In this document: positions 4,115-62,389 of the stretch, one piece after another
Position numbering within the stretch: position 1 is the first letter of the stretch
How the letters are laid out: each line of letters starts with the position of its first letter
DNA from: Minisyncoccia bacterium
Lineage (GTDB): Bacteria; Patescibacteriota; Minisyncoccia; Phycocordibacterales; UBA918
DNA: 64,000 bases
NCBI GenBank assembly: GCA_041750655.1
Contig: JBGSYZ010000011.1
Span: 1,794-65,793, forward strand
Reading direction: 5' to 3'
Notes under the pieces: generated by a model
What the model was told of the DNA's origin: nothing
Databases searched by the model: none
What the model saw: only the letters and a program-made list of their open reading frames with translations
Position numbers and translations under genes: made by a program

Positions 4115-5320
4115 CTATTCGTATCGAATAGCATCCAATGGATTCAGAGTTGAAGCGCGTTTGGCGGGGAAAATACCTGTTAGATAACCCACTGCTGCGG
4201 AGAAAATGGCAATGAACAACAAAAAATTTAACGGGAAAGAAAATAGTGACACTGATTGGCCACCAAATTGACTAGCCACAAAGTTAAGAAGTAGGTTGAT
4301 GGTTAAACCCAAAACTACACCCATAAATATACCGGTTATACCTCCCATAAATCCTACAACGACTGATTCGGATACGAACAACCATTTAATGTCTTTCGGA
4401 GAAGCCCCAATGGTCCGCATAATTCCAATTTCTTTCGTACGCTCTAACAAAGTTACTGTCATAGTATTAAACATACCGATGGCAGACACGAGAAGAGCGA
4501 TTCCGCCAAACACCGCCAAGACCGCTTGTACTCCTTGGAAAATCTTTGAGGCCTGCTCCACTGTTTTAGATAAGGCGGTTACTCGAAAGCCATCTTCGAT
4601 AAGAATTTCTTCTGTTGCATTTAAAAATTCATTTGAGGAGACACGAACTTGGGCCCGCTCGTATTCAGTAATACCAACATGCTGACGAAGTTCATTCATC
4701 ATCATTAGAGCGTTGAGCACTCCTTCTTCTTTGGTGATACCTCTCACGGTATACGTCTTATCAATATATACCTCTGTCACTTCGTCGATATTATCTTCTG
4801 ATTGAACTAACAATCTAAACGTTACCTGTTCGCCCACAAACTCTGCAACATCATCAATACCAAAAAGCTTAAGTACCGCTGGAGAGAGCATGACTGTGTT
4901 ACCATCATCGACATCTTCTTCAGTGAACACATCTCCTTCTGCAGCACTTACCCCTGAATACCGTAAATAGGCCGGTTCAGCACCTTGTAAGAACACATTG
5001 CCAGTCAACCCTTTATACGTAATCAAGGCCGGGAAACGCGCTAATGGAGCAGCGTCTAGTACATTATCAATTGATTCAATTTGAGAAATAGTTTCATCAG
5101 TGATTTTTATTGACTGTGAACCTGCAGAAACCCCGAGAGAGAGCAGTGTTTCACCAAACACAATTTGTTCAATAATAATTTTTTGCAGTCCAAAACCCAA
5201 TCCTACTAAAACCACTACCGCTCCAGTTCCCACACCCATACCAAGAATTGTAAGCCACGTACGAAGTGGGTTCGTAATAAACATTCGAGTCGATAATTGT
5301 GCTAAATCTTGTACACGCAT
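4115..5320 (-). CDS. ABC transporter permease, FtsX/MacB family
   Basis: 401 aa. N-terminal TM (LTILGMGVGTGAVVVLVGLGFGL), large extracytoplasmic domain, then three C-terminal TM helices (FtsX fold). Start ATG at 5320 lies 1 nt after the stop of the upstream ATPase, so the two are translationally coupled. Confidence 0.85.
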   Translation of the reverse strand: MRVQDLAQLSTRMFITNPLRTWLTILGMGVGTGAVVVLVGLGFGLQKIIIEQIVFGETLLSLGVSAGSQSIKITDETISQIESIDNVLDAAPLARFPALITYKGLTGNVFLQGAEPAYLRYSGVSAAEGDVFTEEDVDDGNTVMLSPAVLKLFGIDDVAEFVGEQVTFRLLVQSEDNIDEVTEVYIDKTYTVRGITKEEGVLNALMMMNELRQHVGITEYERAQVRVSSNEFLNATEEILIEDGFRVTALSKTVEQASKIFQGVQAVLAVFGGIALLVSAIGMFNTMTVTLLERTKEIGIMRTIGASPKDIKWLFVSESVVVGFMGGITGIFMGVVLGLTINLLLNFVASQFGGQSVSLFSFPLNFLLFIAIFSAAVGYLTGIFPAKRASTLNPLDAIRYE

Positions 5321-52246: not shown

Positions 52247-52879
52247 CTACTCGCCTTTCAATTCTGCAAAAACTATCAAATTATGTGAATATCTCTGTGC
52301 ACCTTTGTTAAAGATACCAGAACACGTAATCAGTCTTAAACCTGCATAGTTTATGTTTCCGTATACCTCCTCAGTTGGAAAACCAGACTGAGGATGCCGT
52401 TCCAAGTTGGTAACAATAAAAGTAGCCGTAGTGCCATCTTCTCTATCAATATCTATTTCGTCACCAACGTCTAGCTGTCCGAGGGAATAAAAAATAGCCG
52501 GGCCATGTATCGAATCAACATGTCCAAGTATCACGGCTGGACCAAGTTCACCTGGTGTCGGGCCATATTTGTAATACCCAACGGTATCGTAGGCATCAGG
52601 CACGGCCACCTCGCCGTCTTTATTTAAGCCCAGTGGTGCTTCAAAATCCGCCACTACATTAATTTTTGGAATTCGTATTTGTAGCGGTTTAGATTTAGGT
52701 AGTATGGGTCCAGAAATAGTGTTTTCACTAATAGTATTTACTTCTGGAACAACAACTTCTTGTGGTTGTGAATACACAACAATGACTGAAGTAACAAAAA
52801 ATAAAACAGCAAACGCCACCATCAAATGATGGGGGCGTACTGTTTTTTGTGTAAAGAGTGAAGTTACCTTATCGTACAT
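52247..52879 (-). CDS. Sortase (class E/F-like transpeptidase)
   Basis: The ORF track starts at a TTG (52897). ATG at 52879 (MYDKVTS...) is more plausible. N-terminal TM; catalytic His (ILGHVDS), TLXTC motif (LRLITCSG), conserved Arg (RYSHNLIVFA). Confidence 0.8.
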   Translation of the reverse strand: MYDKVTSLFTQKTVRPHHLMVAFAVLFFVTSVIVVYSQPQEVVVPEVNTISENTISGPILPKSKPLQIRIPKINVVADFEAPLGLNKDGEVAVPDAYDTVGYYKYGPTPGELGPAVILGHVDSIHGPAIFYSLGQLDVGDEIDIDREDGTTATFIVTNLERHPQSGFPTEEVYGNINYAGLRLITCSGIFNKGAQRYSHNLIVFAELKGE

Positions 52880-55670
52880 ATCGCTTGCTGCTAGCAATCG
52901 CTACCATACCAAGCCATGCTGTAGGAATAGACACTGGAGATGTTGGAGAAGCTCCACCTGCACCAGCGTTTGGTGCACCAAAAGGTACTACTGATACTTG
53001 TTCACCTAACACTTGTGGAATCGGACCAGCATCACCAGTGCCATCGCTGCTATCACCTGAGCCACCGCCACTCGTTAGTTCAATTTTACGACCACCGCCA
53101 CCTCCGCCACCACTCGTAGTAGTAATGGTAGTTGTGCTGTTAAGACCAAAGTGAGCCACTAGGTCAATATTGCTGTTCATAGTTACCTGACATGGAGTGG
53201 TGTTACCAGTACAGGTGCCAGCACCTGTTGTCCAACTGCTGTCAAAATTTGAACCCTCATCTGCCACAGCTTGAAGATCAACCACTGTTCCAGCCTCATA
53301 AGTCATTTCACAAATATTTTCTTCACCACCATTGGTAGAGCAAGAAATACCATCTTGTTCTGAAGTCACACTACCAGAACCATCACCGGTAATCTCAACA
53401 GTAAGTGTGTATTCATCATCTGAACCTTCTGGTTCACACACCAATGAAACATTATCTAAGAACGTTCCGATTGAACCTAACTCGCCATCGTCAGCAAATG
53501 CAATTGGAGTTTCCTCACCAGTAGCTACAAAACTATACGTGTATGAATTCCAATCTGTGTCGTCAGAAGTCATAGCACTTTGTTCGTCAACAACAGTGTC
53601 GTCAACAAATACCTGTAGCCGATTTTCGTTTTCATCCGTGTCTGGTCGAGCTGAAAAGTCCCAAGTAAGAGTATATGTTTTGCCTGGAATTGTTGGAATT
53701 ACTTGACTAATATGTGTTTGAGCTACCTCGCCAGAACCATCATTAGAACCTGGACCTCCCCAATCAGAATCCAGTTCTGCATACTGGTTACCTTCTGATG
53801 GAGTCCATAGTTCGCTAGTTTGCACTTCTAGATTAGCAATGGCTGGAGCCCCCAAAGAGAACACCCAATCAATCATCCAACCGAGACCAGCCATGCCACT
53901 TTGGAAAATATCCCAACCAGCTTCGTTATCAACTACCACATCCTCGAAACCACCATTAGTAAGAAGATTTACATCAGCTTCACAGGTAAGTGGTTCTTCA
54001 CTATTGTCATCATCGCCAACATAGATGTTAATAATATGACAAACAACTTCATCATCTTCATCACTAAGTTTTATAATGTTTGAATCTCCTTTCTTCCAAG
54101 AAAAACCTCCTCGGAAATCATTCCAAGATTGTGCTTCTTTCCAGTCATGTTCTTTTTCATCTTCCTTACCTTTTCCGCGATAAAAATCTTTGTCGTGACT
54201 GTATTCCTTGTCCCAATCCTTATCATCTGACTCAACCTTACAATAGGTAGCTACATGCTCGTATCCAGCTGGAATATCTACTTCATTAATTTCATATTCT
54301 TGCCCAACATATACGTCACTCCAACCAAGTCCAGACTCGTTGAAGTTCTGTGGATCAAGATCACCAACTTGGAAACTAAAATCAGAAAGATCAGCCGGGC
54401 CTTTATTTTCACCCTTAATCCATTTTACAATCTTAATTTCTCCTTCTGGCTCGACGTCAAATTCACAAACCTTTTCTGACGCATCAACTGCGTCTAAATC
54501 AAATCCATCTGCATCAGCGTCGTGAAGTGAAGCATCTGAAGTGTCAGTTACTCGCACAAACTTAATCCAAGCAAGACCAGTACCACTGAAGTCAAAATAA
54601 CTTACGCGAGTAGCGGTGTCATCTAGGTTACTAGCGGTACCAACTTCGTACCAACTGCTTCCATTTTGACTTACTTCAATCAGGGCTGATTCTTCTGGAT
54701 ATGAGTTTCCGTTAGTAGCTTCGTGGATTGAGATATCGTCACCGTCTACATCGATTACATGACCGTCAAATTCAGTCACAATAGAACCACCAAAACCAAG
54801 AGAGAAGAACCCATCTGAGCCACCATTTGACCAATCAGCTTCACCAAGGACATCATCAGTATTAGAACGGTTGTCATCTACGTCTGCACCGCTTTTTTTT
54901 GTTCCTTGTTCATAATCAGCCACTGAAGAAGCCCAGGCTGGCTCCTGATCTACACAAATGGTCACCTCGTTGTCATCAACTGGATCACCGCAATTTTGTG
55001 TTTCTTCATCGCACTCCTCAAAATCTCCTTCGTTTATATCTATTTCACAAGAACCATCATCTTCTGTTGCTTCCGCGTTGTAATTAGTTGCTTCCGCATC
55101 CATACATCCGTAAACAGGTTCTGCGTCTGGGAAAGTACACGAGTCATCTTCTATAGTCGCTTCAGGATTATAGTTTGAAGCAGAATCATCAGTACAACCC
55201 GTCACTTCTACCACTTCTGGAGTATTTACATGGACATCAATCTGATACGGAGAACCGATTGGTGAGTCCTCACCATCATAAAGCTGAACAGAAACAGTGT
55301 AATCACCGGGAGTACTGTTGCTATAACAAACTCCTTTATTGCCAGTAATAGCAAACTGGTTGTCTCCATCAGGTGTATCTGAGTTGCAGGCACCACCGGT
55401 TGTACCATTGTAAAAACTACCACCGCCATCATCAGATACCACAATATAGGTACTGTCAGTACTTGATGCATCATCAAGTACTGTCGAGACTACAAAGTTA
55501 CCTTTTTCATCAACCTCTAGCGTCAAGTCAGATGGAGTAGCCGTTATGCCAGTAGTAGCCGCATGGGCTACAGACGCCGAAAACGGCAAAAAGCTGAGCA
55601 ACATCGAAACCGCCGTTAGAAAAGCGAGCGCTTGTCCACTAAGACGATTTTGGGTAGTAAAAATATTCAT
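52869..55670 (-). CDS. Secreted 933-aa surface protein with Cys-bracketed NYN..DDGSC repeats, Gly-rich segment and hydrophobic/basic C-terminal tail (candidate sortase substrate)
   Basis: Signal peptide (ALAFLTAVSMLLSFLPFSASVAHA). Three repeats of the form GCTDDSASNYNPEATIEDDSCTF / YGCMDAEATNYNAEATEDDGSCE. A GGGGGGG run. C-terminus ...SPVSIPTAWLGMVAIASSKRYVR (short polar motif, then hydrophobic stretch, then KRYVR). The stop codon is overlapped by the sortase gene. Confidence 0.65.
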   Translation of the reverse strand: MNIFTTQNRLSGQALAFLTAVSMLLSFLPFSASVAHAATTGITATPSDLTLEVDEKGNFVVSTVLDDASSTDSTYIVVSDDGGGSFYNGTTGGACNSDTPDGDNQFAITGNKGVCYSNSTPGDYTVSVQLYDGEDSPIGSPYQIDVHVNTPEVVEVTGCTDDSASNYNPEATIEDDSCTFPDAEPVYGCMDAEATNYNAEATEDDGSCEIDINEGDFEECDEETQNCGDPVDDNEVTICVDQEPAWASSVADYEQGTKKSGADVDDNRSNTDDVLGEADWSNGGSDGFFSLGFGGSIVTEFDGHVIDVDGDDISIHEATNGNSYPEESALIEVSQNGSSWYEVGTASNLDDTATRVSYFDFSGTGLAWIKFVRVTDTSDASLHDADADGFDLDAVDASEKVCEFDVEPEGEIKIVKWIKGENKGPADLSDFSFQVGDLDPQNFNESGLGWSDVYVGQEYEINEVDIPAGYEHVATYCKVESDDKDWDKEYSHDKDFYRGKGKEDEKEHDWKEAQSWNDFRGGFSWKKGDSNIIKLSDEDDEVVCHIINIYVGDDDNSEEPLTCEADVNLLTNGGFEDVVVDNEAGWDIFQSGMAGLGWMIDWVFSLGAPAIANLEVQTSELWTPSEGNQYAELDSDWGGPGSNDGSGEVAQTHISQVIPTIPGKTYTLTWDFSARPDTDENENRLQVFVDDTVVDEQSAMTSDDTDWNSYTYSFVATGEETPIAFADDGELGSIGTFLDNVSLVCEPEGSDDEYTLTVEITGDGSGSVTSEQDGISCSTNGGEENICEMTYEAGTVVDLQAVADEGSNFDSSWTTGAGTCTGNTTPCQVTMNSNIDLVAHFGLNSTTTITTTSGGGGGGGRKIELTSGGGSGDSSDGTGDAGPIPQVLGEQVSVVPFGAPNAGAGGASPTSPVSIPTAWLGMVAIASSKRYVR

Positions 55671-59328: not shown

Positions 59329-60444
59329 TTACTTATTGATATGACTCATAAATTCTCCATTAATGTCAAAAAGAAAATTTAGTTCATTCTTTTCTATCAA
59401 TTTAATTTCTTCTGGAGAAAGATTCAAATTCAAGTCAGGTCTACTTTCAATATGATACTTTAAAAAATTACCCGGTGTAGCTATACAGTCTTTTAGATCA
59501 TGAAGCTTAGCTTCCCCATTGAATTCAACGTCAATTTTGTATTTACTCTGATGAATATCTATGAAGGATTTGAAAAGGGGTCGATTAGTGATATTCACAT
59601 TTACCGCCTCCATTCTTGAAACAACTTCTCTAAGTTGTATGAACGACAACTGTTTACCTTTTATCTTATCTATAAAGTCCTCGTAGACCGAGCTGAAGAA
59701 TTTTGCATCATCCAATACAGCCACTACCGCATAGTCACCAACCTTAACTGCAATGACACGAGCTGAATGACTATCCATATAATCAAAATCGCAGTTACCA
59801 TCTTCTTCAACGATAGGAATAGCTATCATTGTTCCATACACCAACTCACCTATATCTGCCTGTGAGTAATGACTTCTGGCTACACACCATATGTGATGCA
59901 TTGGTCCCCAATCATAAGTGTCAGCAATCATTGGACTTTCAATTCTACGATCTAACTCAAACCGCCTTTCCTTATCCTTAAGATGATTTTTAATGAAAAT
60001 TAAGGAGAGCCACTTAAATATAAGTTTTCCATCATCTTGGGTAACACTAGCCTTAAAATCCTTGTACTCAGGTTTAAGGATATTTCTTAATGGGGTTTCA
60101 TACACCCTAGATAATTCACCATTACACTCCTCACAACAAGGCAGTGTTTGAGATGCGTATTGGATAAAATAATTATTAGGTAATCTAATTTTTTCATTAT
60201 ATAAATTGAATCGACGTAAAAGCCATCGCGGAATTATGTGCTCGTCACTGAACTTCTTGTCACAGGAATCTATAAGGACACCACATATAAAACAACTATC
60301 GGCATTGACTATTTCATCAACAAAATCATCCAATGGATAATAAATAACCTTCTCATGGTTGTTAAATACTTTTATTATTTTGTTAGTACTGGTGACAACA
60401 TGCGCATGCATCCATAAATTATATAGAAAACTAGCACGAAACAT
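59329..60444 (-). CDS. Hypothetical protein with HNH-like Cys/His motif
   Basis: The ORF track gives 59329..60510, whose N-terminus overlaps the tRNA-like element; the internal start at ~60444 (MFRASFLYNLW...) is more plausible. CFICGVLIDSCDKKFSDEHIIPRW resembles an HNH nuclease core (C-x-x-C...H-I-I-P); further Cys pair CCEECNG. Confidence 0.4.
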   Translation of the reverse strand: MFRASFLYNLWMHAHVVTSTNKIIKVFNNHEKVIYYPLDDFVDEIVNADSCFICGVLIDSCDKKFSDEHIIPRWLLRRFNLYNEKIRLPNNYFIQYASQTLPCCEECNGELSRVYETPLRNILKPEYKDFKASVTQDDGKLIFKWLSLIFIKNHLKDKERRFELDRRIESPMIADTYDWGPMHHIWCVARSHYSQADIGELVYGTMIAIPIVEEDGNCDFDYMDSHSARVIAVKVGDYAVVAVLDDAKFFSSVYEDFIDKIKGKQLSFIQLREVVSRMEAVNVNITNRPLFKSFIDIHQSKYKIDVEFNGEAKLHDLKDCIATPGNFLKYHIESRPDLNLNLSPEEIKLIEKNELNFLFDINGEFMSHINK

Positions 60445-60465
60445 AGTGTCTCGTGCTAGCTCTAA

Positions 60466-60602
60466 ACGGCGGAGAGGGGGGATTCGGTCACGAATAATTT
60501 TGCTAGACAAAATTTTCTCGACCCCAGCTCACTAGTCTTCGACATCGCTCCGCCTTTCGAACCCCCACGCAAGCAAAGCAGTTTGCTTGCCCTCTCTCCG
60601 CG
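60466..60602 (-). ncRNA. tRNA-like element with 8-bp acceptor-type helix and a T-arm split by a 71-nt insertion (function unknown)
   Basis: rc = GCGGAGAG-AGG-[GCAAGCAAA-CTGC-TTTGCTTGC]-GT-GGGGGTTCGA|AGGCGG...(71 nt)...GTGACCGA|ATCCCCC-TCTCCGC-C. Removing the insert recreates GGGGGTTCGAATCCCCC, identical to the T-arm of the neighbouring tRNA-Ser. The 5' and 3' ends pair as in a tRNA acceptor stem. There is no D-arm and no 7-nt anticodon loop. Confidence 0.35.
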
Positions 60603-60604
60603 AA

Positions 60605-60632
60605 CAAAATATGCGCCATAAGGCGCTATTTT
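60605..60632 (-). terminator. Hairpin plus T-run immediately downstream of tRNA-Ser
   Basis: aaaata(t)gcgcc-ataa-ggcgctatttt: a GC-cored stem flanked by an A-run and a T-run (bidirectional intrinsic-terminator shape). Confidence 0.45.
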
Positions 60633-60639
60633 GTACTCG

Positions 60640-60726
60640 CGGAGAGAGGGGGATTCGAACCCCCGATACGGTTTCCCGTATACATCCTTTCCAAGGATGC
60701 GCATTCGACCACTCTGCCATCTCTCC
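60640..60726 (-). tRNA. tRNA-Ser (anticodon GGA), class II with 17-nt variable arm
   Basis: rc = GGAGAGA-TG-GCA-GAGTGGTCGAA-TGC-G-CATCC-TTGGAAA-GGATG-TATACGGGAAACCGTATC-GGGGG-TTCGAAT-CCCCC-TCTCTCC-G. All stems pair perfectly. U33, anticodon GGA, A37, G73 discriminator. 87 nt. CCA is not encoded. Confidence 0.85.
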
Positions 60727-60749
60727 ACTATATTCAATATTAGAACGTT

Positions 60750-60934
60750 CAGTTTTTATATGAGCGTTCGAATCAGCTCCCTCCTTTACTCTGTTCGGCA
60801 CAGCCTCACAACGAGTAATCTGCTCACTTCGTTCGCAGACCGGATGAAAAGTGAAGCTGTTCACTTTTCGTCCACCGCCTTTCAGTCGGATGAAACTTGC
60901 TCCCAGCAACTTTCATCCACTCTGCCATCTCTCC
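60750..60934 (-). ncRNA. tRNA-Ser 5'-segment-derived element (copy 2) with own promoter-like upstream and long hairpins; pseudo-tRNA or novel sRNA
   Basis: rc starts with the identical 18 nt GGAGAGATGGCAGAGTGG and continues with a 13-bp hairpin GGATGAAAGTTGC-TGGGA-GCAAGTTTCATCC, further stems, an AAGGAGG motif and a T-loop-like GAGCTGATTCGAACGCTC. The upstream sequence AACGTTCTTGCTCATATGAATAT resembles that upstream of the real tRNA (AACGTTCTAATATTGAATATAG). Confidence 0.3.
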
Positions 60935-60940
60935 ATATTC

Positions 60941-61099
60941 ATATGAGCAAGAACGTTTATTTTACAGCATGCGTTGGGCTTTGTTTCCACTTTTGGTCTG
61001 TTCACGTTCGTTCACAACGACCAATCCGCTGCTCTGGCGAGACAGCGGACCAGAGAAAATATAAAGCATTTTATATTTTCTCCACTCTGCCATCTCTCC
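60941..61099 (-). ncRNA. tRNA-Ser 5'-segment-derived element (copy 3) with 12-bp AT hairpin and pseudoknot-like a-b-a'-b' arrangement
   Basis: rc = GGAGAGATGGCAGAGTGG + AGAAAATATAAA-ATGC-TTTATATTTTCT hairpin + CTCTGG-TCCGCTG-TCTCG-CCAGAG-CAGCGGA (interleaved complementary segments, H-type pseudoknot topology). Upstream TTGACC ... TATAAAT looks promoter-like. Confidence 0.3.
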
Positions 61100-61120
61100 A
61101 TGGTCAATATTTATATCACA

Positions 61121-61148
61121 AAACCGACCTTAAAGGTCGGTTTTGTCT
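61121..61148 (-). terminator. Intrinsic terminator downstream of 61165..61401
   Basis: aaaaccgacc-ttaaa-ggtcggtttt: perfect 10-bp stem with an A-run and a T-run (bidirectional). Confidence 0.55.
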
Positions 61149-61164
61149 CTGCAAAATGAGTTGA

Positions 61165-61347
61165 TTATTTGCAGGTAGCGCAGTGGTGTTTATGGGTCAC
61201 CAACTCAACAATAGTAGCCAAACCTACTAGAATATAGACTACGTCAGCCAACTTACCACCCAGAAGATTGTAAACTAAGTCATAGTTGAAGGCTCCGACC
61301 AAGAGCCAGTTAAGACCTCCGGCAGCCATTAATAGAAAAGCCACCAT
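61165..61347 (-). CDS. DUF378-family small membrane protein
   Basis: Probable start at the internal ATG (MVAFLLMAAGGLNWLLVGAFNYDLVYNLLGG...VYILVGLATIVEL); matches the DUF378 pattern (GGLNWGLVG...VYILVGLSA). Confidence 0.6.
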   Translation of the reverse strand: MVAFLLMAAGGLNWLLVGAFNYDLVYNLLGGKLADVVYILVGLATIVELVTHKHHCATCK

Positions 61348-61483
61348 GTGCACAGTTTTATTATGCATAGAAAATTGGATTAAATAAATAATTCCCGTCA
61401 CTTCTACAATTATTATACCCTTATTTTTAATAAGGTTATATGTGGTAGTCGAATAAATAACGAATTGTTAATTTTAAAAAAAT

Positions 61484-62389
61484 TTATTTATTAATATCTA
61501 AGTCGCGCAGAATACGAATTCTTTCAGCAGCTGGCGGGTGTGTTTGGAATAGGTTGGAAATTTTTTGCCGAAAATTTTGCTTATTGTTACCAAAGGGATC
61601 AGCAATGAACAAATGGGCTGTGGCGTTATTAGCCCGACGCATTGGCTGACTGTGAGTGGATATTTTTTCTAAGGCTGAAGCCAAACCTTCGGGATACCGT
61701 GTCAGCATGGCTCCGGACACATCGGCCAAGTATTCACGCTTTCGTGAGATGGCCATTTGAATCATCTGCGCCGCAATCGGTGCGAGAATGATACCCACGA
61801 TACCGAGCACCAAGAAAATAACCCCAGCTTTGTTGTCTCTATCTCCCCCACCCCACATCATAGAACGCATTAACATATCAGCGACAATGGCTACAAAACC
61901 TGCCAGCACCACTGCTACGGTCGACACCAACATATCGCGATTACCAACATGTGAAAGTTCGTGAGCCATAACGCCTTCGAGTTCGGCGCGGTTGAGAATA
62001 CTCAAAAGACCAGTAGTAGCGCACACGACGGCGTGTTCTGGATCTCGACCAGTTGCAAAGGCATTGGGCGCTGCATCATTGACCACATACACTTTTGGCA
62101 TCGGCAAACCAGCCGTAATAGAAAGATTTTCAACCACGTTGATGAGCTCGCGATGTTCAGTCATGCTGGCCGGTACAGCTCCTGTCATCTTAAGAACCAA
62201 TTTATCCGAGTACCAGTAACTATAAAAGTTCATGCCAATGGAAAAGATAACGGCAATATACAGTATTGCTGGGTTACCATAGAGCACACTTACAAAGTAA
62301 CCAATGGCAATAATGATGACAAAAAACCACATCATCAAAAACCACGTTTTTCGAATATTTTTTCCTTGCTGAGTATATAGTGTAGCCAT
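61484..62389 (-). CDS. htpX: Protease HtpX (M48 zinc metallopeptidase)
   Basis: 301 aa. Two N-terminal TM helices; HEXXH motif in GVMAHELSHVGNRD; downstream TM pair; C-terminal FQTHPPAAERI (third zinc-ligand region). Confidence 0.85.
   Translation of the reverse strand: MATLYTQQGKNIRKTWFLMMWFFVIIIAIGYFVSVLYGNPAILYIAVIFSIGMNFYSYWYSDKLVLKMTGAVPASMTEHRELINVVENLSITAGLPMPKVYVVNDAAPNAFATGRDPEHAVVCATTGLLSILNRAELEGVMAHELSHVGNRDMLVSTVAVVLAGFVAIVADMLMRSMMWGGGDRDNKAGVIFLVLGIVGIILAPIAAQMIQMAISRKREYLADVSGAMLTRYPEGLASALEKISTHSQPMRRANNATAHLFIADPFGNNKQNFRQKISNLFQTHPPAAERIRILRDLDINK

Follow-up and report, generated by a model that had tools for sequence, protein, structure and literature searches.

Structured modules that carry copies of a neighboring tRNA end flank a tRNA-Ser(GGA) gene and form a widespread family in Patescibacteria

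Several kinds of small structured sequence are known beside, or inside, bacterial and archaeal genes. Miniature hairpin elements such as REP/REPIN, PATE, and the Rickettsia palindromic elements are small, non-coding, and strand-specific; they are gained and lost and can be tandem or nested, and REPs, whose imperfect palindromes have a GT[AG]G foot, are dispersed in many copies between genes and have a cognate RAYT gene. T-box leaders are structured 5' leaders with k-turns, a motif made of a C-helix, a 3-nt bulge, tandem sheared G·A pairs, and an NC-helix that is bound by L7Ae-family proteins. Integrative elements commonly use tRNA genes as att sites and come to be flanked by partial copies of the tRNA (PMC9897764; bioRxiv 10.1101/2020.12.28.424599). 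The RNA genes of Patescibacteria carry intervening sequences and group I introns (PMC13011429), while permuted and disrupted tRNA genes have been described in archaea (PMC3978253). The published work returned by a full-text literature search dealt with tRNA fragments in general and with group I introns in the tRNAs of Patescibacteria, with no account of the modules reported here, which we call U and D.

We analyzed a 64-kb stretch of DNA from a Minisyncoccia bacterium (the window), in which a canonical tRNA-Ser(GGA) gene with no encoded CCA lies on the minus strand at 60639..60726 (ARAGORN; Rfam RF00005, 60.5 bits). The 18-mer GGAGAGATGGCAGAGTGG occurs at exactly three sites in the window, all on the minus strand, with 5' ends at 60726 (the tRNA itself), 60934 (copy 2), and 61099 (copy 3) and spacings of 208 and 165 nt; there is no fourth site in the 64 kb when up to three mismatches are allowed, and a triple match was reached in 0/100 shuffles. 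ARAGORN and Rfam found a single tRNA in the region (60726..60639) and no extra or odd ones, and copies 2 and 3 do not form a full cloverleaf, having only tRNA positions 1-18/19 in common with the gene. An earlier note on this DNA had described one canonical tRNA and two 5'-segment copies that run into long structured bodies, and the repeat search, ARAGORN, Rfam, and folding all bear this out. With Rfam 15, the tRNA alone passed the gathering score on the region, and hits at E<10 there and at E<0.05 on 14 related loci were only tRNA-derived, antisense, or long-hairpin look-alikes, so that no known RNA family accounts for the copies. Hammerhead and HDV-like cores (CUGANGA...GAAA and others) were rejected on inspection by eye, as the motifs do not fit. 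The four ORFs listed for the span are mechanical ones that overlap the tRNA and the RNA-like modules, and are most likely spurious, as the note had it.

Upstream of tRNA-Ser and on its strand, copy 3 (61099..60935) and copy 2 (60934..60727) form a tandem pair of U modules. Each joins a duplicate of tRNA nt 1 to 18-19, reaching G19 in the D-loop GUGG, to a multi-hairpin domain that consists of P1, P2, and P3 with G·A (k-turn-like) motifs, a purine linker (GGAGGAAAC), and P4 followed by a CUUAC tail. We described the family by a covariance model (R1) and an alignment of 12 members (A1); both window copies are in the seed and therefore match R1 by construction, copy 3 with 141.5 bits (E 4e-41) and copy 2 with 119.8 bits over 60884..60727, and they are the only R1 matches in the 64 kb. 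Copy 3, a type-3 module by A1 and its pair counts, has its 5' segment at 61099..61082, P1 at 61083..61052, P2 at 61049..61025, and P3, with a G·A/k-turn-like internal loop, at 61022..60995 (helices from A1), followed by the purine linker AAAAGUGGAAAC (60994..60983) and P4 (60976..60951), from which the tail runs to the next 5' segment. Copy 2 is composite. Its 5' segment (60934..60917) leads into P1a with a UGGGA loop (60918..60888) and the linker GACUGAAAGGCGGUGG (60887..60872), and past the second GUGG of that linker a complete type-3 module is inserted, with P1b at 60873..60842, P2 at 60839..60819, P3 at 60816..60788, the linker AAAGGAGGGAGC at 60787..60776, and P4 at 60769..60743, the tail abutting the tRNA. 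The first half of copy 2 resembles type-1 modules such as those of loci L187 (2898..3004), L101, and L185.

The 373-nt sense strand of the array folds at -125.5 kcal/mol (z = -5.6 against shuffles), compared with -112.8 kcal/mol for the antisense strand. Two long perfect hairpins had been proposed within it: the 12-bp hairpin AGAAAATATAAA/TTTATATTTTCT is indeed perfect, while the 13-bp hairpin GGATGAAAGTTGC/GCAAGTTTCATCC exists but contains one G·G mismatch, with 12/13 positions paired. A proposed interleaved a-b-a'-b' segment likewise stands in part. The b/b' pairing is the conserved helix P2, but a/a' pairing needs an 11-nt insertion in the P2 loop that is seen only in copy 3 among the 12 aligned members, and the pseudoknot therefore lacks comparative support. 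The P3 pattern ..GU-UGU-GA-GC..GC-GA-AC.. fits the k-turn consensus by eye.

The array is not the aberrant, unique arrangement that had been supposed. A degenerate-pattern scan of metagenomes yielded 107 stretches, and the modules form a family with well over 100 instances: R1 gives about 140 further sense-strand matches in the loci, and independent members (L120, L147, L187 2573..2734, and L028) score 104-147 bits. In nearly all stretches with enough flank, the U module lies 50-260 nt upstream of a tRNA-Ser gene, on the same strand, and the linked genes have GGA, CGA, GCU, UGA, or ACU anticodons. The first 18 nt of the tRNA-proximal copy are identical to the adjacent tRNA in 66/75 cases, whereas distal copies are more often degenerate. 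The HtpX set also contains about 35 loci from outside Patescibacteria, actinobacterial ones among them, and no R1 match was seen in these. We conclude that these modules are a widespread family beside the tRNA genes of Patescibacteria (CPR bacteria), that the family is absent from Rfam, and that its members carry a duplicate of one end of the neighboring tRNA.

The structure of the modules is conserved by compensatory change. In A1, both sides of the pair have changed at 10/14 pairs of P1, 6/7 of P2, and 5/7 of P3; overall, 89% of cells pair, compared with 72% in shuffles (as high in 0/500) and 30-42% in slid controls. In 66/76 modules the sense strand is the better folded of the two. P2 and P3 repeatedly show GUGA/GAAC G·A motifs, and every module has GUGG directly before, or overlapping, the foot of P1. 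Conservation and covariation in relatives are thus both strong, which refutes plain degenerate duplicates and agrees with the earlier view that the copies are no simple pile of pseudogenes.

At the level of loci, the modules come and go. The HtpX-linked tRNA-Ser(GGA) gene has orthologous loci with and without U: the window, L002, L004, L011, L020, and L028 have it, and L003, L006, L007, L008, L010, L014, L018, and L019 lack it. Between L138 (Ser-CGA) and L157 (Ser-UGA), module and spacer are 94% identical, and the 5' segment matches each local tRNA. In L159, the D-loop of a tRNA-Glu fragment holds a module with the same P1-P3. Copy number ranges from 0 to 3, and arrays are heterogeneous in the window, L149, and L187 but made of identical units in L093 and L106. 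Units nested past each GUGG are found in L114, L138, and L157, as in copy 2 of the window. The duplicated segment has a left edge 0-45 nt upstream of the tRNA start and a right edge fixed at G19, and so does not look like a classical target-site duplication.

We next consider transcription. The earlier note had given each copy a promoter of its own, but in the consensus scan neither copy 2 nor the tRNA has one in front of it, and the sequence that precedes copy 2 and the tRNA (AACGTTCT...) is the 3' arm of the conserved helix P4 plus the module tail; recognizable sigma-70 promoters were accordingly rejected at these two sites. Across the family, a promoter-like extended -10 motif precedes the first module in 30/80 cases, compared with 3/68 for a tRNA that follows a module and 2/11 for internal modules. 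In the window, reading the sequence gave an extended -10-like stretch, TGTGATATAAAT (61109..61120, minus strand), that the consensus scan had not picked up. It lies just past the terminator hairpin of DUF378 (61146..61118), with 9 nt between its end and copy 3, in line with where such motifs stand in the family, ahead of the first module; it is possibly the promoter of the whole array.

A second kind of module, within the flagged span yet missed by the earlier note, lies at 60601..60468. This D module (subfamily Db, minus strand), delimited by inverted and direct repeats and by alignment A2, consists of an inverted copy of the acceptor 3' strand, GCGGAGAGAGGG (60601..60590), an inserted hairpin with a CUGC loop (60589..60570), an inverted copy of the T-arm (60566..60556), a G·A-containing hairpin (60554..60526), a long hairpin (60523..60486), and a direct copy of the tRNA 3' end, CGAAUCCCCCCUCUCCGCC (60486..60468). 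Compensatory changes are seen in 13/24 of its predicted pairs (A2). D modules also occur downstream of Arg, Leu, Lys, Val, Ile, and Glu tRNAs. They occur independently of U, and we therefore ruled out U and D as the two obligate ends of one element. The inverted-repeat scan found a long near-palindrome, T1 (60590..60650, minus strand), in which the tRNA 3' strand and trailer pair with the inverted copy; at its center is a terminator-like hairpin followed by a U-run (60626..60613; terminator-like site scan), and the same arrangement is found in L008, L011, L099, L116, L163, and L187. On the 3' side of the D module, AGCUAGCAC...GUGCUAG followed by UUUUC (60426..60461, minus strand) reads as a candidate terminator-like hairpin, T2, which fails the criteria of the terminator-site scan. 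In L002, which has no D module, a T2-related hairpin lies directly 3' of the tRNA, and this locus looks like an empty D site. In L003, the 3' direct repeat of the D module derives from the other tRNA-Ser(GGA) sequence type.

The nearest ORFs have either no family match or a match to DUF378, HtpX, or DUF1697, and no recombinase or transposase, RAYT and Y1 types included, was identified among them; Pfam, PADLOC, and NCBIfam show no IscB/TnpB/Cas-type effector domains in the adjacent ORFs. A downstream 362-aa ORF was considered as a linked recombinase or nuclease and rejected, having no match in Pfam, PADLOC, or NCBIfam. By eye only, its N-terminus (CxxC...DEH...CCxxC) is HNH-like.

Our leading reading, which we hold tentatively, is that tRNA-Ser(GGA) is embedded in tRNA-specific structured insertion modules that are prone to gain and loss and are co-transcribed with it as a pre-tRNA leader. 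A single promoter upstream of copy 3 would probably drive transcription of the modules together with the tRNA. The transcript would have a long, independently folding 5' leader, and RNase P would cleave at the true tRNA 5' end and release a normal tRNA, so that the insertion may cost the cell little. The modules themselves would originate and multiply as DNA, through insertion or duplication at the D-loop GUGG, with copy 2 as a nested insertion at a second GUGG. The D module is the counterpart at the 3' end, built around the T-loop-to-acceptor segment in inverted and direct copy. In being gained and lost between close relatives, the modules would resemble intervening sequences or miniature non-autonomous insertion elements more than essential regulators. 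Of the earlier note's candidates, the best fit is given by processed leader elements and by repeated insertion of an element into the 5' part of tRNA-Ser; independent promoter-bearing small RNAs are disfavored.

Like REP/REPIN-type elements, the modules are small, hairpin-rich, strand-specific, gained and lost, and tandem or nested, and the P1 palindrome right after GUGG recalls the REP foot, the modules having GT[AG]G together with an imperfect palindrome. Unlike these elements, they carry a copy of the local tRNA end, and their G·A motifs and GNRA-type loops suggest RNA-level constraints. Nor are they dispersed between genes: the R1 matches inspected in 1.33 Mb all adjoin a tRNA gene or a contig end. 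As with the intervening sequences and introns of the same phylum, extra structured sequence is found at stable-RNA genes, and the insertion points correspond to tRNA loops (D-loop G19, the T-loop, and once the anticodon loop). Unlike with introns, there is no group I signature in Rfam, and the intact tRNA is uninterrupted, the module lying beside it with a duplicated segment.

If our reading holds, many Patescibacteria tRNA genes are not simple units but are embedded in folded modules that duplicate their own ends, which would change the view of pre-tRNA processing in reduced genomes. For annotation, the modules mean spurious ORFs, partial tRNAs, and assembly breaks at module repeats. The U covariance model, the D alignment, and more than 100 loci are resources for metatranscriptomics and biochemistry.

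A different explanation, possible though on balance unlikely, is that the modules are functional host RNAs that control how tRNA-Ser matures or how abundant it is, acting in cis as a leader or as a processed small RNA. They might bind a k-turn-binding protein or seryl-tRNA synthetase, or the 5' segment (together with its antisense, where there is one) might serve as a decoy in alternative pairing with the real tRNA strand. The strong covariation of P1-P3, the G·A motifs repeated in P2 and P3, and strand specificity speak for it; conserved G·A motifs, GNRA-type loops, and strong covariation are expected of an RNA with its own function, beyond a tolerated insertion. The 5' segment follows the local tRNA across lineages. 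In the window, the three 5' segments are exactly identical although the bodies have diverged, which could reflect selection instead of recent insertion. In an Arg(GCG)/Ser(UGA) synteny clade there is one module per locus, with compensatory differences, these loci having been retrieved via the module itself. A long stretch antisense to the 5' segment (at least 12/14 positions paired) is present in 17/76 modules, and in L138/L157 it tracks the local 5' segment; yet it is missing from most modules, both window copies included, and with helix 1 only 68% paired in type-3 modules we rejected a general closing helix. Also against a host function are the patchy presence at the same locus in close relatives, a copy number that varies from 0 to 3, the degraded distal copies, and L087, where Ser-ACU has a U module and Ser-GCU does not; we know of no ligand or protein partner. 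The likeness to T-box leaders, a long structured RNA upstream of a translation-related gene with G·A/k-turn-like motifs and a specific tRNA identity, is limited as well, as the modules precede the tRNA gene itself rather than an aminoacyl-tRNA synthetase gene and show no recognizable specifier or antiterminator logic, and Rfam gave no T-box match on the region even at E<10.

A bolder reading, which we regard as unlikely, is that U and D are previously unrecognized tRNA-gene-specific elements. They would be either mobile structured elements, of RNA or ssDNA, that take a copy of 18-22 nt from the end of the target tRNA, both direct and inverted, or a form of RNA-level control that is widespread in CPR bacteria. 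In the mobile version, insertion could occur at the positions that encode the tRNA elbow (D-loop G19 and the T-loop); in the control version, tRNA maturation could be governed through decoy copies of tRNA ends. Mobility by target copying, or regulation of tRNA maturation, would be a new principle and a new element or regulator in bacterial tRNA biology.

The leading idea of the earlier note, small RNAs that derive from tRNA-Ser and are each transcribed as a separate gene from a promoter of its own, is quite improbable. The same 18 nt do start each copy, with similar sequence before copy 2 and the tRNA, but that shared sequence is the P4/CUUAC tail of the preceding module, and the promoter-like motifs that this explanation needs are missing before copy 2 and the tRNA and rare between module and tRNA in the family. 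It is favored by L159, the locus with the tRNA-Glu fragment, where each module ends in a hairpin and U-run followed by a TATAAT-like box.

Still less probable is an origin in genomic islands or prophages that an integrase repeatedly inserted at tRNA-Ser and excised, leaving att duplications with decayed cargo as scars. Duplicated tRNA ends beside an intact tRNA, serial copies, and the attR-like direct repeat of the tRNA 3' end in the D module recall the partial tRNAs of integrative elements, as does the L003 repeat drawn from the other sequence type. Those elements, however, are kilobase-sized and carry an integrase, whereas the modules are non-coding, structured units of 100-210 nt: the two U units of the window (165 and 208 nt) contain no ORF of a known family, and the D unit (about 135 nt) is structured. 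Upstream it is the 5' end to the D-loop that is duplicated and not the 3' end, as the earlier note had rightly held; an inverted copy of the tRNA end is also present, and decaying scars would not show an interior kept by compensatory changes. There is no integrase in the immediate neighborhood that was checked, and collections of viruses, phages, and plasmids gave no matches to the modules.

Least probable of all is an intron-like or split array, with the first 5' segment joined in RNA to tRNA positions 20-76, or a set of guide-plus-scaffold RNAs acting on tRNA genes: tRNA-within-tRNA arrangements (L011, L020/L183, and L024) and layouts reminiscent of omega-RNA and reRNA (an 18-19 nt target match then scaffold in U, scaffold then about 20 nt in D) favor it, but the intact tRNA gene is always present, which makes splicing redundant, copies 2 and 3 have no 3' exon behind them except the complete tRNA, Rfam gives no group I or group II intron at gathering or E<10 on the region or at E<0.05 on the 14 related loci, we know of no bacterial tRNA-splicing pathway for such sites, no nuclease gene is linked, and a guide of the same sequence as the intact gene beside it would direct the enzyme to the host's own tRNA gene. 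Archaeal split and nested tRNAs also have 5' fragments separate from the body, and tRNA-in-tRNA arrangements with complementary flanks (L011, L020, L024) recall them; the modules differ in their bacterial lineage, in that no bulge-helix-bulge motif was identified, and in an intact tRNA that makes joining unnecessary.

The nested genes themselves follow a common plan. In L011, L020/L183, and L024, a complete tRNA-Ser(GGA) lies within the D-loop or anticodon loop of another tRNA-Ser(GGA), with stem-extending inverted repeats on either side of the inner tRNA and the 3' remainder of the outer one following. In this set of loci, tRNA-Ser(GGA) alleles take one another's place and nest in one another at a single locus, possibly a sign of dynamics related to those of the modules.

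The tRNA-Ser 5' end GGAGAGATGGCAGAGTGG is present in three exact copies on the minus strand, with 5' ends at 61099 (copy 3), 60934 (copy 2) and 60726 (copy 1, the tRNA itself), following HtpX (62389..61484), a DUF378 protein (61401..61165) and a terminator hairpin (61146..61118) on the same strand. Three copies are far beyond chance (expected count 0.02; three matches in 0/100 shuffles), in keeping with the three 5' ends described in the earlier note. Its claim of a single canonical tRNA also held, as both ARAGORN and Rfam called tRNA-Ser(GGA) at 60726..60639 (minus strand) from the last copy only. The two upstream bodies, described there as structured, are strongly folded (−125.5 kcal/mol over 373 nt, z = −5.6). 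Two details needed correction: the "perfect 13-bp" hairpin contains one G·G mismatch, a minor point, and the pseudoknot depends on a loop insertion found in copy 3 alone.

Each upstream unit, here called a U module, begins with a 5' segment duplicating the tRNA 5' end, followed by P1, a 13-14-bp hairpin with the foot GGAU/AUCC and a CUGC or UGGGA loop. Then come P2 and P3, which are optional and carry a recurring GUGA/GAAC G·A motif (the P3 pattern matches a k-turn by eye), and a purine stretch, GGUGG/GGAGG. The module ends either in a hairpin of local D-loop sequence and its complement, after which some modules have a stretch antisense to the 5' segment, or, in type 3, in GGAGGAAAC, helix P4, CUUAC and ~12 A-rich nt leading straight into the next 5' segment. 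Copy 3 is a full type-3 module. The first part of copy 2 resembles a short type-1 module, with a 5' segment, a P1 whose loop is UGGGA, and GACUGAAAGGCGGUGG; after the second GUGG a whole type-3 module is inserted. The Logan contig L001, an independent assembly with HtpX and DUF378 genes identical to those of the window, ends inside copy 3 (L001 4749-4811 corresponds to window 61099-61037). An assembly break at a real repeat would account for this, and U-module repeats probably break short-read assemblies.

A degenerate pattern (tRNA-Ser 5' end, GGATRA, 14-30 nt, TYATCCG) matched 107 stretches of a metagenome collection and none of a viral collection. In nearly all stretches with enough flank, the match lay 50-260 nt upstream of a tRNA-Ser on the same strand, and all isoacceptors (GGA, CGA, GCU, UGA and ACU) had upstream modules, one to three in tandem per locus. 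The module closest to the tRNA shared its first 18 nt exactly with that tRNA in 66 of 75 cases; identity was lower in second and third copies. ARAGORN called well-formed tRNA-Ser with the anticodon ACU (loop UU-ACU-AA), often beside tRNA-Ser(GCU), at L087 9203-9290 and in many further loci, among them L084, L090-L092, L098 and L101; a tRNA-Ser with A34 would be unusual in bacteria.

The structure, for which the earlier note had proposed a search for covariation in relatives, was borne out by an alignment of 12 type-3 sequences that includes both window copies. Standard pairs filled 89% of cells, compared with 72% after shuffling (0/500 shuffles as high) and 30-42% in slid-partner controls, and pairs had changed on both sides in P1 (10/14), P2 (6/7) and P3 (5/7). 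P4 shows conserved sequence and no covariation, and the closing helix of 5' segment and tail is weak (68% paired). R1, the covariance model built from this alignment, gave exactly two hits over the 64-kb window, the window copies (141.5 and 119.8 bits), both of which are in the source alignment. In the fetched loci it gave ~140 further sense-strand hits, including members missed by the pattern (L120, L147, L028 and three in a row in L187). Those that we saw all lay near a tRNA gene or a contig end, and we noticed none in fetched loci of actinobacterial or other non-Patescibacteria origin. Antisense hits were to the palindromic P1 alone. Folding was stronger on the sense than on the antisense strand in 66/76 modules, and of 44 near-tRNA occurrences of the P1 core hairpin, CUGC loop included, 40 were on the strand of the tRNA.

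The earlier note had also given each copy its own promoter. This does not stand, as a consensus scan of the window found no sigma-70-like site before copy 2 or the tRNA, and the supposed promoter, AACGTTCT..., is the P4 3' arm plus the module tail. In the family as a whole, 30/80 first modules had an extended -10-like motif in the 40 nt before them; such a motif also preceded 2/11 internal modules and, of the tRNAs that follow a module, only 3/68. Since these motifs occur mainly at the first module, we infer that U modules and tRNA share a single transcript, from which the tRNA would be freed by an RNase P cut at its 5' end, in line with the established action of this enzyme.

A second structured unit, the D module (60601..60468, minus strand, ~135 nt), lies 3' of the tRNA and has at its end a direct repeat of the tRNA's 3' portion (T-loop to acceptor). 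Directly 3' of the tRNA is a near-palindrome (60650..60590, minus strand), centred on a terminator-like hairpin, in which an inverted copy pairs with the 3' strand of the tRNA and with its trailer. The D unit is kept at the orthologous locus with compensatory changes in L003, L008 and L011, and for ten members of the D subfamily to which the window belongs RNAalifold predicted a three-way junction with compensatory changes in 13/24 pairs. L002 is without D and has a hairpin related to T2, the terminator-like hairpin after D, directly 3' of its tRNA, as expected for an empty D site. Units resembling D occur 3' of tRNAs for Ser, Arg, Leu, Lys, Val, Ile and Glu, in some cases in tandem. U and D share building blocks (CUGC- or UGGGA-loop hairpins and GAGCGAAGCGA-type motifs), and each is found without the other. 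In L095 (69-500), a tRNA-Ser(GCU) copy split in the T-loop by a D-type body has U modules on one side and an intact tRNA-Ser(GCU) on the other. Loci from MAGs labelled Saccharibacteria (L046, L050, L070, L043, L061) carry a direct 3'-end copy ~160 nt downstream of tRNA-Val or tRNA-Leu, with a distinct conserved body bearing a GCCAGTGGC hairpin in between; they are a separate D-type subfamily in another Patescibacteria lineage. Many U and D modules (e.g. L083, L085, L088, L110) contain, inside GAGCGAAGCGA motifs, the recurring heptamer GCGAAGC or a variant of it, GCGTAGC or GCAAAGC. d(GCGAAGC) is an unusually stable DNA mini-hairpin, and modules bearing it may have a single-stranded-DNA role.

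HtpX relatives put the window among Patescibacteria/Paceibacteria metagenome-assembled genomes, many of which also have tRNA-Ser(GGA) after HtpX. Extra tRNA 5' copies at this orthologous locus are recurrent but patchy: L002, L004 and L028 have one each, that of L004 agreeing with its own, different tRNA sequence; L011 and L020 have a 5' segment and hairpin, then a complete second tRNA-Ser(GGA), then the rest of the outer tRNA; and L003, L006, L007, L008, L010, L014, L018 and L019 have none. This patchiness argues for gain, loss and spread of U modules at the DNA level, as do arrays that are heterogeneous or built of identical units, nested units after each GUGG, and a P1-P3 module inside the D-loop of a tRNA-Glu fragment. 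The same is argued by L138 and L157, whose module and spacer are 94% identical before different isoacceptors, while the 5' segment, and its antisense where present, is fitted to the local tRNA. The duplicated segment has its right edge fixed at G19 and a left edge varying from 0 to 45 nt upstream of the tRNA start, which is at odds with a simple target-site duplication. No recombinase adjoins the array. The neighbouring 362-aa ORF just 3' of the D module (59329-60417, minus strand) has a Cys-rich N-terminus (CFICG...DEHIIPRW...CCEEC), HNH-like by eye, and no match in Pfam, PADLOC or NCBIfam. Farther along, a 933-aa ORF (52869-55670, minus strand) encodes a secreted/surface-type protein that has a Gly/Ser tail and abundant Asp, Gly, Ser and Thr; it is typical of CPR surface proteins and has no relation to the array.

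The best-supported reading, which we hold tentatively, takes the modules for a family of miniature, structured insertions specific to tRNA genes. They would be tolerated because they enter the transcript as an independently folding leader, in the case of U, or as a trailer-side unit, in the case of D, while tRNA release stays normal. That the modules are instead functional RNAs controlling tRNA-Ser maturation is the main rival and rather improbable; it would fit the conserved G·A motifs and the way in which module sequence tracks tRNA sequence, and has the patchy distribution and varying copy number against it. Independent small-RNA genes, integrase scars, and intron, split-tRNA or guide-RNA models rank lower. 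As for a known RNA family that might explain the array, none in Rfam 15 matches the modules, nor did phage, plasmid or viral collections. In full-text literature searches, all that came up was work on group I introns in tRNAs of Patescibacteria (PMC13011429) and, more generally, on fragments of tRNA genes (PMC9897764; bioRxiv 10.1101/2020.12.28.424599). The modules come closest to att-site tRNA fragments, REP/REPIN-like hairpin elements, intervening sequences, k-turn-containing leaders and archaeal disrupted tRNA genes, each of which has at least one defining feature that the modules lack. We therefore see the modules as a variant of kinds already known, a structured repeat or leader element, with a modest chance that they are something categorically new.

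Complete tRNA-Ser(GGA) genes also lie within another tRNA-Ser(GGA) in L011 (5934-6182), L020 (4927-5300), L183 (~1472-1642, reverse-complement coordinates) and L024 (~4330-4610), where flanking 9-17-nt inverted repeats lengthen the inner acceptor stem. For L011 and L020/L183 the site of the inner gene is the D-loop, and for L024 it is the 34/35 boundary of the anticodon loop; the outer 3' remainder looks largely intact in L011 and L024 and is degenerate in L020. Relatives differ in which of two tRNA-Ser(GGA) sequence types, GGAGAGATGGCAGAG... or GGAAGAGTGGCCGAG..., they have at the HtpX-linked locus (L003, L007, L010 and L018 compared with the window, L008 and L011). In L003, the D module carries at its end the 3' sequence of the other type, suggesting that tRNA-Ser(GGA) alleles have been replaced at this locus.
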